Shown here piece by piece: positions 3,693 to 9,558 of a stretch of DNA of 64,000 nucleotides. Below the pieces are notes generated by a model, which saw only the letters and a list, made by a program, of their open reading frames with translations, was not told the DNA's origin and did not search any database. Location of the stretch: NCBI GenBank assembly GCA_963835335.1, contig CAWIFB010000030.1, positions 13,017-77,016 on the forward strand. The letters are read 5' to 3'. The position numbers and the translations under genes are program-made. This DNA comes from an uncultured Chloroflexia bacterium (lineage in GTDB: Bacteria; Chloroflexota; Limnocylindria; Limnocylindrales; CSP1-4). Every line of letters starts with the position of its first letter. Position 1 is the stretch's first letter.

Positions 3693-4922
3693 ATGTCATC
3701 CCTGACGATCAGTCCACGCCGTCGCGCTGCTAGGATGACCACCGTGAGTTCCAACCCACCGGTCCACGGCTCCATCCGCCTCGGGGAGGAGCACATCCTG
3801 CTCCGCGACGCCGTTCGCGTGCTCGCCGACGAGCAGATTGCACCGCGCGCGGCGGAGATCGACCAGCAGGGCGAGTTCCCCGAGGACGTGCGCCAGCTGC
3901 TGGCGAACCACGACATCCTGTCGATCCCGTTTGCCGAGGAGCACGGCGGGTTGGGCGGCGACCTGTTGACCCTGTGCCTCGCGATCGAGCAGCTCAGCCG
4001 CGTGTGCGCGACGTCGGGGCTGATCCTGGCGGTCCAGTCGCTGGGCGCGATCCCCATCCAGGTCGCGGGAACGGCGGAGCAGAAGGATCGCTGGCTGCCC
4101 GGGCTCGCGTCGGGCGAGAAGCTGATCGCGTTCGGGCTGACCGAGGCGGACGCGGGGTCCGACCCGTCCGGCATTCGCACGCGGGCGGTTCGCGATGGCG
4201 ACGACTACGTCATCGACGGCTCGAAGCGGTTCATCAGCCACGCCAGCGTCGCGGACTACGTCGTCACCTTCGCCGTGACCAATCCCGACGCCGAGCGGCC
4301 CAGCCGCCGCCTGTCGGCGATCCTGGTCGAGACCGACCGGCCGGGGTTCACAGTCACCCGCCTCGAGCACAAGATGGGGATCCGCGGCTCGCCCACCGCA
4401 GAGCTCGCGTTCGATGGCGTCCGGGTCCCGGTGGCGAACCGGCTGGGCGACGAGGGCCAGGGGTTCGCGATCGCGATGCAGACGTTCGAGCACTCCCGGC
4501 CCGGGATCGCGGCCCAGGCGGTGGGGATCGCGCAGGGTGCCCTCGAGGTCGCCGCGCACTACGCCACGGAGCGACACCAGTTCGGCAAGCCGATCGGCGA
4601 GCTCCAGATGGTCCAGGCGATGCTCGCCGACATGGACGCCGCCACCGAGGCTGCCCGCCAGCTGGTCTACACGGCGTGCCAGGAGATCGACGCCGGCGCC
4701 CCCGACGCGGCCCGCTGGGCGGCGATCGCAAAGCTCGTGGCCGGGGACGCCGCGATGCGCGTGACCACGGACGCCGTCCAGGTCCTCGGTGGCTACGGCT
4801 ACATCGACGAATACCCCGTCGAGCGGATGATGCGCGACGCGAAGATCACCCAGCTCTACGAGGGCACCCAGCAGATCCAGCGGCTGATCGTCGCCCGGGC
4901 GTTGCTCGCGAAGAGCTCGTGA
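3693..4922 (+). CDS. Acyl-CoA dehydrogenase
   Basis: Full-length ACAD-like sequence (LGEEHILLRDAVR, FGLTEADAGSDPSG, GYGYIDEYPVERMMRDAKITQLYEGT). The start is uncertain; GTG at 3744 lies 7 nt after a TAGGAT -10 box, which would make it leaderless. Confidence 0.9.
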   Translation: MSSLTISPRRRAARMTTVSSNPPVHGSIRLGEEHILLRDAVRVLADEQIAPRAAEIDQQGEFPEDVRQLLANHDILSIPFAEEHGGLGGDLLTLCLAIEQLSRVCATSGLILAVQSLGAIPIQVAGTAEQKDRWLPGLASGEKLIAFGLTEADAGSDPSGIRTRAVRDGDDYVIDGSKRFISHASVADYVVTFAVTNPDAERPSRRLSAILVETDRPGFTVTRLEHKMGIRGSPTAELAFDGVRVPVANRLGDEGQGFAIAMQTFEHSRPGIAAQAVGIAQGALEVAAHYATERHQFGKPIGELQMVQAMLADMDAATEAARQLVYTACQEIDAGAPDAARWAAIAKLVAGDAAMRVTTDAVQVLGGYGYIDEYPVERMMRDAKITQLYEGTQQIQRLIVARALLAKSS

Positions 4923-7352: not shown

Positions 7353-7362
7353 GCGGGTTACG

Positions 7363-7410
7363 ACCCCGCATGTAGTGGTATTCTCGCCTCGCACCACTAG
7401 GGATAGTGGT
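7363..7410 (+). promoter_or_regulatory. Putative tandem NrdR boxes overlapping the nrdR promoter
   Basis: Box 2 at 7393-7410 is ACCACTA-GGGA-TAGTGGT, with perfect 7-bp arms. Box 1 at 7363-7379 is ACCCCGCATGTAGTGGT and shares the TAGTGG half-site. The 16-mer cores start 31 bp apart. An extended -10 (TGgTATTCT, 7376-7384) overlaps box 1. Confidence 0.55.
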
Positions 7411-7432: not shown

Positions 7433-7918
7433 ATGCGCTGCCCCCAGTGCGGTACTCGTGACACGCGCGTCGTGGACTCGCGCGACCTCGACGAGGCCTC
7501 GACGATCCGGCGCCGCCGGGAGTGCCCGGCATGCACCACGCGGTTCACGACGTATGAGCGCGTCGAGGCGGCCCGGCTGGTGGTCGCCAAGCGCGACGGG
7601 ATCCGGCAGGAGTTCGATCGCGACAAGCTCGCGTCGGGGCTGGCCAAGGCGCTGACCCGGCGCCCGGTCGCGGACGATGCGGCGGAGCGCGCCGCGGACG
7701 AGATCGAGAGCGAGCTGCGGTCGTCCGGGGCATCGGAGATTCCCAGCTCGCGGATCGGCACCATGGCGATGGACAAGCTGCGCGCGATCGACCACATCGC
7801 GTACATCCGGTTCGCATCGGTGTACCAGAGCTTCGAGGATCTCGAGGACCTCAAGCGCGAGGTGGACAGCCTGTTCGCGGAGGGCGGGGCGCCGAAGAAG
7901 CGGAAGCCGCTCGCGTGA
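7433..7918 (+). CDS. nrdR: Transcriptional repressor NrdR
   Basis: [17 protein letters not shown] zinc ribbon plus ATP-cone ([31 protein letters not shown]). GGAGGG Shine-Dalgarno precedes the ATG at 7433. Confidence 0.95.
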
Positions 7919-9558
7919 GCGTCCTCGCCGATCGCGACATCCGGGCGGAGCTGGAGTCGGGGCGGGTCCGGATCGACCCGTATGACCCGTCGGACCTGCA
8001 ACCGTCGTCGGTGGATCTCCACCTCGATCGCAGCTTCCGCGTGTTCCGCAACAACCGGTACGCGTTCATCGACCCGCGATCGCCACAGCCGGACCTGACG
8101 GAGCTGCTGCACATCGGCGACGACGAGCCGTTCGTGCTCCACCCGGGCGAGTTCGTGCTGGGCCAGACGCTCGAATGGGTCGAGCTGCCCGACGACCTCG
8201 TGGCCAGGCTCGAGGGAAAGGCGCTCGCCCTCGACACGCCCGTGCCGACGCCATTCGGCTGGCGGACGATGGGCGAGCTCGAGCCCGGCGACCTGGTGTT
8301 CGACGAGCACGGGGTGCCGACAACGGTCGTCGCGGCAACGCCGCCGCTCCTCGATCGCCCGTGTCGTGAGGTCACCTTCTCCGACGGTGCAACGGTGATC
8401 GCGGACGCCGACCACCAGTGGCTGACGGTGGACAAGAACGGTCGACGTCCCGGTCGCTGGCGGGGAGCGATCCGCACCACCGACGAGATCGCCCGCACGC
8501 TCACGGTCCGGGGCGAGCGCAACCACCAGGTGCCGCTGCCGGGTCCCGTCGAGTACGCCCCGCGCATCGACCTCCCGATCGAGCCCTACACGTTCGGGGC
8601 GTGGCTGGGGGACGGCACGACCACGAAGGCCGAGATCACGTCCTGCGACCCCGAGGTGTTGCGGCAGATCAGCGGCGACGGATTCTCGGCACAGCCGTTG
8701 TGGTATGCGCCGCATGCATATCGGATCGGTGGCGTCGGCCAGACGCGCGATGCCACAACCGGCCGCTACGCGCGCAGCGGATCCCTGTCGAGTCGCCTGC
8801 GCACCATGGGCCAGATGAGCGGCAAGTTCGTGCCTCGCGAGTACCTCCAGGCGGGCGTCAGCCAGCGGCTCGCATTGCTCCAGGGGCTGATGGACACGGA
8901 CGGCTTCGTCGACGACATCGCGGGGCGGTGCGAGTTCACGAGCACGAACGAAGGCCTGGCCAATTCCGTCGTCGAGCTTGCCGCCAGTCTCGGCTTCCGG
9001 CCGGTGATGACGACCGGGCGGGCGATGCTCAACGGGATCGACCACGGACCCAAGTACCGGGTGAAGTTCACGCCCGATCGACCGGTCTTCCGCCTGACGC
9101 GAAAGGTCGTCCGCCAGAAGCCAACCAACAGCCGCTTCCATCGATTCCGGGCGATCGCCGATGTGCGCGAGGTGGCGTCCGTGCCCGTGCGCTGCATCGA
9201 GGTGGCCTCGCCGCGTGGGTTGTTCCTGGTGTCCCGCTCGTTCATCCCCACGCATAACAGCTCGCTCGGCCGCCTGGGCCTCCTCATCCATTCCACCGCG
9301 GGGTACGTGGATCCGGGCTGGGAGGGCACCCTCACGCTCGAGCTGTCGAACGTCGCCAACCTCCCGATCGCGCTGTACTACGGCATGCGCATCGGCCAGA
9401 TCAGCTTCTTCCGGATGAGCTCGCCCGTCGAGCGGCCGTACGGCAGCAAGGAGCTGGGATCGAAGTACCAGGGCCAGTCCGAGCCCACGGCGTCGGCCTT
9501 CCATGCGGACTTCGAGCGGGGCCGCAAGGTGCGGGACGGCGGGGATGGCTCGGCATGA
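7915..9558 (+). CDS. dcd: dCTP deaminase interrupted by an intein (exteins aa 1-102 and 449-547)
   Basis: N-extein ends ..VARLEGK and C-extein starts [29 protein letters not shown]. Joined, they recreate the conserved Dcd motif [12 protein letters not shown]. The GTG start overlaps the nrdR stop (GTGA). Confidence 0.9.
8221..9258 (+). mobile_element. Intein (346 aa) with LAGLIDADG homing-endonuclease domain and class-3-like WCT signature
   Basis: Starts [14 protein letters not shown] (Ala1, block A) and has block [13 protein letters not shown]. It carries two LAGLIDADG motifs ([24 protein letters not shown]). Block F is VPVRCIEV, block G is FIPTHN, and the +1 residue is Ser. Confidence 0.85.

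Follow-up and report, generated by a model that had tools for sequence, protein, structure and literature searches.

The locus described here raises the question of what kind of element splits the active-site motif of a dCTP deaminase (Dcd), and how the gene could still yield an enzyme. The gene lies in a stretch of 64,000 nucleotides (hereafter the window) of contig CAWIFB010000030.1, assembly GCA_963835335.1, from an uncultured Chloroflexia bacterium. Our analysis indicates that the insert is very probably a full-length class 3 intein that encloses a LAGLIDADG homing endonuclease and is located between Lys102 and Ser103 of Dcd; it would first splice and then home. The occupied gene is the only dCTP deaminase gene seen in the window, whose host is a Limnocylindria-type Chloroflexota bacterium, and neither a second dcd nor a second intein was found within these 64 kb.

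The precursor reading frame occupies positions 7915 to 9558 of the forward strand, to which all coordinates refer, and encodes 547 amino acids plus a stop codon from a GTG start. Pfam DCD matched the precursor in two stretches, residues 3–102 and beyond residue 448, and the dCTP deaminase equivalog TIGR02274 of NCBIfam also matched in two stretches, with 200.9 bits against a cut-off of 92.8. The N-extein (7915–8220) holds Dcd residues 1–102, ends in LEGK, and aligns to residues 2–101 of the Mycobacterium tuberculosis enzyme (2qxx). The C-extein (9259–9558), delimited by alignment to the same structure, holds residues 103–201 of the mature protein and the stop codon, and starts with SSLGRLGL. 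Between them stands the insert of 346 residues (8221–9258; LEGK/SSLGRLGL, where the slash marks the insertion point), which starts with ALALDTP and ends with SRSFIPTHN. Translation of the raw sequence reproduced, base for base, the insert and the split motif that the initial annotation had delimited.

When the insert was removed in silico, the resulting Dcd of 201 residues aligned with 2qxx without a gap over the junction (E 5e-74, 63% identity), and also with E. coli Dcd (1xs1, E 1e-40). The residue that follows the insert, Ser+1 (AGC, 9259–9261), is Ser103 of the spliced enzyme and the counterpart of E. coli Ser111. Likewise, Arg107 and Glu130, within GKSSLGR...LELSN, correspond to E. coli Arg115 and Glu138; the E. 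coli numbering (R110-S111-S112...R115, E138) was checked. We take Ser111, Arg115, and Glu138 to be catalytic in the E. coli enzyme, and hence Ser103, Arg107, and Glu130 here. Ser103 doubles as the splicing nucleophile and the active-site serine of Dcd, and the intein sits exactly at this catalytic residue. The 63% identity to 2qxx suggests that the enzyme may be a bifunctional dCTP deaminase:dUTPase, like that of M. tuberculosis.

The class of the intein was assigned from its splicing domain. A phmmer search of the PDB with the insert alone returned as top matches the inteins MchDnaB1 (6rix, E 2e-28; 6riy, E 1e-27) and MsmDnaBi1 (6bs8, E 5e-26), in alignments that cover intein residues 1–70 and 312–346. 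Both are class 3 inteins known from crystal structures and biochemical work. Since the N-terminal 70 and C-terminal 35 residues match these solved class 3 inteins at E values of 2e-28 to 5e-26, a chance match is excluded. The N-terminal splicing lobe (8221–8430, residues 1–70) contains blocks A and B, and aligns residue for residue, with high identity, to residues 1–70 of 6rix and 6bs8; in 6bs8 its N-terminal block stands against ALALDTPLPTPSGW and its block B region against RPCYVVEFSDGTAIVADAQHQW. The C-terminal lobe (9184–9258) contains block F, from Pro322, and block G, and aligns to VPVRCVEV...PTHN of 6rix and 6bs8, with SVPVRCIEV in the window against SVPVRCVEV in 6bs8 and IPTHN against VPTHN. 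In the raw sequence, Ala1 is encoded by GCG (8221–8223), Cys48 by TGT (8362–8364), Trp67 by TGG (8419–8421), Cys325 by TGC (9193–9195), and Thr344-His345-Asn346 by ACG CAT AAC (9250–9258); the N-terminal lobe also carries Asp62 and His65 (Asp62-x-x-His65), with Trp67 two residues beyond His65.

The initial annotation had proposed that a Trp, a Cys, and a Thr occupy the diagnostic positions of class 3 inteins, and the alignment check that it suggested was run. Trp67 (B:12), Cys325 (F:4), and Thr344 (G:5) fall in the same columns as Trp67, Cys118, and Thr137 of MsmDnaBi1, and likewise in MchDnaB1; Cys48, Asp62, His65, and Trp67 even carry numbering identical to that of MsmDnaBi1. In MsmDnaBi1, Trp67, Cys118, and Thr137 constitute the WCT triplet, Asp62-x-x-His65 replaces TxxH, and Cys118 is the initiating nucleophile (PMC6195587). 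In the definition of Tori et al. (PMC2807308), a class 3 intein has no N-terminal nucleophile, carries WCT at B:12, F:4, and G:5, and is followed by Ser or Thr at +1. The window's insert has all of these features: Ala1 instead of Cys, Ser, or Thr, the triplet, Ser+1, and HINT blocks A, B, F, and G. In an alignment of 59 inteins (58 from species-representative genome loci, plus that of the window), Ala1, Cys48, Asp62, His65, Trp67, Cys325, Thr344, His345, and Asn346 were invariant in 59/59, although the block G count is partly built in, as the intein ends were picked by a [TV]HN pattern. The class 3 signature is present in every relative recovered, and those with solved structures belong to this class, in a comparison whose tree has neither class 1 or 2 outgroups nor bootstrap values. 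These alignments support the assignment of the insert as a class 3 intein, as the initial annotation had read it.

The middle of the intein contains the two LAGLIDADG motifs that had been reported, AWLGD131G at residues 123–134 (8587–8622) and LMDTD227G at residues 217–229 (8869–8907), with catalytic Asp131 and Asp227. The endonuclease domain extends over about residues 100–305 (8518–9135). Pfam PF14528 (LAGLIDADG_3) matched it with 27.8 bits, above the cut-off of 22.5, while PF05204 (Hom_end) scored 18.5 bits, short of its cut-off of 21.1; in the PDB sequence search, PI-SceI chains weakly matched residues 209–284. Both Asp residues are invariant in a 42-row alignment of Dcd inteins, and in the wider class 3 family the motif Asp is kept in 50/59 (motif 1) and 45/59 (motif 2). 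An AlphaFold2 model was built from 42 close homologues, a shallow alignment whose rows are 73–95% identical. Its confidence (pLDDT) was 66 overall and 80–89 in the N-terminal splicing lobe, while much of the endonuclease had 35–65, and we judged the model unfit for active-site geometry. Foldseek matched it to PI-SceI, TliVMA, PI-PfuI, the monomeric two-motif I-DmoI, and the class 3 mini-inteins 6rix, 6riy, and 6bs8. The probability was 1.0 for PI-SceI, PI-PfuI, and I-DmoI, yet TM-scores were 0.2–0.4, from a model with pLDDT 35–65 in this domain. The predicted structure is thus consistent with a two-motif LAGLIDADG fold, short of proof, and this fold evidence is weak because of the low pLDDT in the domain. 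The domain also contains a third cysteine, Cys237 (8929–8931, AGRCEFT), which is invariant in Dcd inteins and mostly replaced by Val in the inteins of other hosts.

Class 3 splicing proceeds via a thiol-labile branched intermediate at block F, for which Cys F:4 is absolutely needed. By analogy with experimentally studied homologues, a precursor of 547 residues would be made from the nrdR-dcd operon, and it should lack activity, as the insert parts Gly-Lys from the catalytic Ser-Ser-Leu-Gly-Arg. The thiol of Cys325 (F:4), not residue 1, would attack the Lys102–Ala1 bond, assisted by Asp62, His65, and Trp67 of block B and by Thr344, to give a thioester branched intermediate. The N-extein would be handed to the hydroxyl of Ser+1; cyclisation of Asn346, aided by His345, would free the intein, and an O-to-N acyl shift would yield the mature Dcd of 201 residues with its native motif restored. 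The freed intein of 346 residues would then act as a monomeric two-motif LAGLIDADG endonuclease, probably cutting an intein-free dcd at about CTCGAGGGNAAG/AGCTCGCTGGG, and repair from the occupied allele would copy the intein in (homing).

Searches with the intein and with the spliced Dcd, which the initial annotation had recommended, revealed that intein-bearing Dcd proteins are common and that their entries are named only “dCTP deaminase”. More than 120 cluster representatives matched the full precursor with 77–96% identity, all of 536–572 residues, and the motifs are kept in all of the intein-bearing Dcd clusters, of which there are more than 116 in this identity range. The named representatives are “dCTP deaminase” from Candidatus Limnocylindrales or Chloroflexota metagenome genomes, and the closest genome (L001, 95%) is a Chloroflexia metagenome-assembled genome (MAG). 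The Dcd intein allele is common in Limnocylindria metagenome genomes. A practical consequence is that hundreds of public “dCTP deaminase” entries of ~545 residues are really intein-bearing precursors in which the intein is unannotated; one is binned as Patescibacteria, others as Chloroflexota.

The search with the spliced Dcd also recovered intein-free proteins of 197–210 residues, with up to 95–97% extein identity. In four genomes (L064–L067), an intein-free dcd lies in the same gene order as in the window: electron transfer flavoprotein beta/alpha, a hypothetical gene, nrdR, dcd, and metallo-beta-lactamase. The neighbouring genes are 81–84% identical to those of the window in DNA, and the N-extein 87–90%. 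The insertion site is exactly empty in all four, reading CTCGAGGG[AC]AAG/AGCTC...; in L064, the intein-free allele lies at 4001–4612 and its site reads CTCGAGGGCAAG/AGCTCGCTGGGG. Empty and occupied alleles are interleaved at 92–97% extein identity. When 116 occupied and 120 empty alleles were placed on a neighbour-joining tree of their exteins, which is poorly resolved because the extein is short, at least 23 changes of state were required, against ~79 with shuffled labels. GC content at third codon positions is 88% in the intein and 91–94% in the exteins, and this closeness to the host indicates a long-resident element. The element is an old resident, mostly inherited vertically, with repeated gain or loss.

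The same intein is also present at the same Dcd site in an actinobacterial MAG of Jatrophihabitans (L015). This intein shares 63% identity with that of the window; its extein shares 80% with M. tuberculosis Dcd and just 62% with the window's Dcd. Occupation of the identical site in an actinobacterial extein indicates that the element has moved between phyla. Among the phage records searched, none was found to carry this Dcd intein.

Selection was estimated by Nei-Gojobori dN/dS over 104–120 pairs from 16 species-level genomes. The ratio was 0.12 in the endonuclease domain, 0.20 in the N-terminal and 0.09 in the C-terminal splicing lobe, and 0.16–0.19 in the exteins; these values are rough, because dS in the intein is near saturation. 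The endonuclease is under purifying selection and is clearly not drifting. In the same 16 genomes, median dS is ~1.3 in the intein (8221–9258) and ~0.76 in the exteins (7915–8220 and 9259–9555), with similar nonsynonymous constraint. The higher value might reflect codon usage that constrains the exteins, or an intein history partly independent of theirs.

Several observations weigh against an intein that both splices and homes. The protein is known here from its sequence alone, the AlphaFold2 model is only moderate, with pLDDT below 50 in parts of the endonuclease domain, and the near-saturated intein dS of ~1.3 blurs the selection estimates. Frameshifts are present in three related Dcd-intein copies from MFD long-read MAGs (one each in L016 and L018, and two in L034), which may be due to sequencing error or to real decay. 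Moreover, intein and flank distances are correlated among 15 occupied genomes (Spearman 0.68, Pearson 0.79); this co-variation indicates that inheritance within Limnocylindria is largely vertical, and current homing is putative. Such co-variation would also be expected if the intein splices but its endonuclease no longer homes, being a vertical passenger or a domain kept for precursor folding or DNA binding, and the fully host-adapted composition and the clustering of the occupied state on the extein tree (23 changes against 79 when shuffled) fit such an intein as well. In contrast, the endonuclease is constrained by purifying selection to the same degree as the exteins, none of the Dcd copies has changed either catalytic Asp, empty and occupied alleles interleave at high extein identity, and the same site is occupied in two phyla. 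Loss of homing is therefore possible, but we regard it as rather unlikely. The frameshifted copies bear further on whether splicing itself has been lost and dcd is a pseudogene. Ala1 would kill a class 1 intein, and a class 3-like pseudo-intein, Arth_1007, has been documented (PMC3196547). The window's intein nevertheless has all class 3 catalytic residues, including the Cys F:4 that Arth_1007 lacks; its frame is unbroken both here and in over 116 clusters, exteins and intein are under purifying selection across the 16 species-level genomes, and the window has no second dcd. A decayed intein is thus highly improbable.

Ala1 is also found in the class 2 inteins of the KlbA type, in which Ser+1 would here attack the N-terminal junction directly, without a block F branch. 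In class 2, the WCT triplet is absent and the +1 residue used is Cys (PMC2807308), and the nearest relatives of the window's intein are proven class 3 inteins. Because the triplet is complete here and the +1 residue is Ser, we excluded a class 2 assignment, and splicing by that route is scarcely credible. Another view, compatible with splicing and homing as proposed above, is that splicing is conditional: oxidation would link Cys48 to the catalytic Cys325 and thereby pause the maturation of Dcd, and hence the supply of dUTP/dTTP, under oxidative stress, so that the intein would be a post-translational switch atop NrdR control. The two residues, invariant in 59/59 family members, take the positions of Cys48 and Cys118 of MsmDnaBi1, where a disulfide between them inhibits splicing reversibly and activity depends on Cys48 (PMC6195587). 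The gene is also part of an nrdR operon preceded by conserved NrdR-box-like sites. As the invariance of Cys48 may reflect a mere structural or catalytic need, and the benefit to the host is speculative, we consider redox gating doubtful.

The splicing and homing intein proposed here belongs to a very large family. An exhaustive profile search returned 18,383 clusters (at 50% identity) with E <= 1e-3, 4,565 of which had E <= 1e-30. Every non-Dcd genome locus recovered contains a class 3 intein, and all but one of the readable non-Dcd junctions follow the Gly-Lys of a Walker A P-loop. These are DnaB (AARPAMGK/STLAL), RecA (GPEGSGK/TT), terminase large subunits (KNGK/T or KNGK/S), one primase-helicase, and XPD/DinG-type helicases, the last two also after the Walker A GK; the exception is the gpA terminase of L044 (...LHK/S). 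Two of these loci hold a second intein. The gpA-type terminase of L044, from Candidatus Gottesmanbacteria, carries two class 3 inteins in one open reading frame (GK/ALWVETP... and LHK/AIAIDTP...), and the DnaB of L036, from Acidobacteriota, carries an apparent class 1 intein (CLTGDTRLL...AHN/S) besides the class 3 intein in its P-loop.

Among the best 150 proteins of the profile search, 113 inteins were parsed, 90 of which follow GK. The nearest non-Dcd hosts identified were phage terminases (Terminase_6N, gpA) and an FtsK-like ATPase, and P0245, P0260, and P0280 were without a host-domain match. Three Dcd proteins are among the 150, together with P0307 (504 residues), a divergent Dcd-like host. 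P0307 has the junction FVGRVEGK/STLARMGL and an intein 47% identical to that of the window, which suggests that the Dcd-site lineage reaches more distant members of the dUTPase superfamily. In a neighbour-joining intein tree without support values, the Dcd inteins form one clade beside terminase and primase-helicase inteins, outside the DnaB clade. Dcd is the only non-ATPase host identified among the hosts assigned; all others are DNA-handling ATPases.

The GK/[ST] context recurs at the LEGK/SS site of Dcd, within the unrelated fold of the dUTPases. A DNA-level homing site common to the Dcd and P-loop sites was considered and found to be weakly supported: 13–21/42 bases are identical, against a background of 12.5 +/- 3. 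The best matches rank in the top 0.6–2.5% of random in-frame windows, mostly via the Gly-Lys-Ser/Thr codons. In view of this weak likeness, the GK/[ST] context seems to reflect a requirement at the protein level or a loosely recognised element, and not a long common target. Nucleotide-binding motifs have been proposed as avenues of extein switching for class 3 inteins (bioRxiv 10.1101/2025.01.02.630785), and a phage origin has been proposed for the class (PMC3196547; PMC5050341); the Dcd insertion at GK/SS fits both proposals. A more specific scenario, in which the intein switched from the Walker A motif (GK/S or GK/T) of a phage terminase or helicase into the GK/SS of the dUTPase-fold Dcd, a phosphate-binding motif of unrelated structure, and was then kept as a Cys48–Cys325 redox switch, is speculative, and we think it improbable as a whole. 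If true, the redox switch would impose a post-translational control on a nucleotide-supply operon that NrdR also regulates.

The closest characterized relatives are the mycobacterial DnaB-1 inteins at the DnaB-b site, including MsmDnaBi1 (6bs8) and MchDnaB1 (6rix, 6riy), whose splicing lobes and those of the window's intein are highly identical and align position by position. They share ALALDTP, the DxxHQW block B, Cys48, VPVRC[IV]EV, PTHN, Ser+1, and insertion after ...GK. In contrast to the window's intein, which keeps a full LAGLIDADG domain, they are mini-inteins of 139–145 residues in which the endonuclease is naturally absent or trimmed, and they reside in the Walker A P-loop of a replicative helicase rather than in a dUTPase-fold deaminase. 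The class 3 prototypes, the Bethlehem DnaB and Deinococcus radiodurans Snf2 inteins, were compared by their published description: they lack an N-terminal nucleophile, have WCT and Ser/Thr at +1, and are also full-length with a LAGLIDADG endonuclease (PMC2807308; PMC5050341). Unlike Dcd, their hosts are helicase-type ATPases, and all such inteins known to Tori et al. had putative helicases or terminases as hosts and mostly interrupted P-loops (PMC2807308). Nearest outside Dcd, endonuclease included, are the class 3 inteins of phage terminase large subunits (TerL; Mycobacterium phage Cjw1 group and Rhodobacter phages, at the “classic P-loop” site TerL1-a). Terminase inteins are 35–39% (tblastn, phages) or 42–48% (metagenomic terminases) identical to that of the window, and the junction is GK/[ST] in both, whereas the host protein and fold differ from Dcd; the site DNA is alike in 19–21/42 bases, against the above background.

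An intein in Dcd is not new as such. The intein of gp069, the Dcd of cyanophage vB_AphaS-CL131, was shown to excise itself in E. coli (PMC6293099), and it interrupts the same conserved motif as the window's intein. In our translation, it is a class 1 intein (Cys1 ... Asn/Cys+1) with an HNH endonuclease, unrelated in sequence to the window's, and is inserted five residues downstream (GKSTYAR/CGI, as opposed to GK/SSLGRLG). The comparison of these sequences indicates that it is an independent invasion of the same Dcd motif. Earlier Dcd inteins from one proteobacterium and one Chloroflexi are known to us through their citation in PMC6293099. No link between class 3 inteins and dCTP deaminase was found in the literature searched, and the same allele may have been seen earlier without classification, possibly as the Chloroflexi Dcd intein mentioned in 2013. 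The kind of element is known, and what is apparently new here is the host and insertion site for class 3.

Class 3 inteins have been described almost solely in DNA-handling ATPases, namely DnaB, Snf2, RecG, terminases, PhoH, and Cas4 (PMC2807308; PMC6195587; bioRxiv 10.1101/2025.01.02.630785). Here, the same lineage has settled in a small metabolic enzyme of another fold, where the site has no more than the local GK/S context in common with theirs. The Dcd case clearly illustrates extein switching to a host that is not an ATPase, and it supports the idea that nucleotide-binding motifs serve as routes by which inteins jump between unrelated genes. It is one member of a very large known class, and it suits experiments well as a convenient natural system: the enzyme is a homotrimer of 201 residues whose activity is easily assayed, the class 3 intein is full-length and its splicing lobes closely resemble two crystal structures, the endonuclease is apparently intact, and natural empty alleles (those with 87–90% N-extein DNA identity) could serve as homing substrates.

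The initial annotation had also placed dcd under apparent NrdR control. This is plausible: the gene overlap and conserved box-like palindromes agree with it, while the strict canonical box was unmatched. The gene upstream, nrdR (7433–7918, forward strand), encodes a Zn-ribbon and an ATP-cone (Pfam Zn_ribbon_NrdR, 1e-18; ATP-cone, 1e-20), with a conserved ATG at 7433 in a reading frame listed from 7406. Its stop overlaps the dcd GTG start by 4 bp (7915–7918), as in intein-free orthologues. The canonical NrdR-box consensus is ACACWANATNTWGTGT, and no match to it with up to 3 mismatches was found in the sequence searched. Two NrdR-box-like palindromes of the ACCACnnnnnnnnGTGGT type were read from the forward strand upstream of nrdR (7362–7410), and they look like a CCAC...GTGG variant of tandem NrdR boxes. 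One is a perfect palindrome, ACCACTAGGGATAGTGGT, at 7393–7410, and the other is partial, at 7362–7379, ending in TAGTGGT (7373–7379); their centres are 31 bp apart, and CACTAnnnnTAGTG occurs once in the window. The tandem pair is conserved upstream of nrdR in numerous Limnocylindria loci (L001–L004, L007, L009, L010, L012, L013, and L064–L067).

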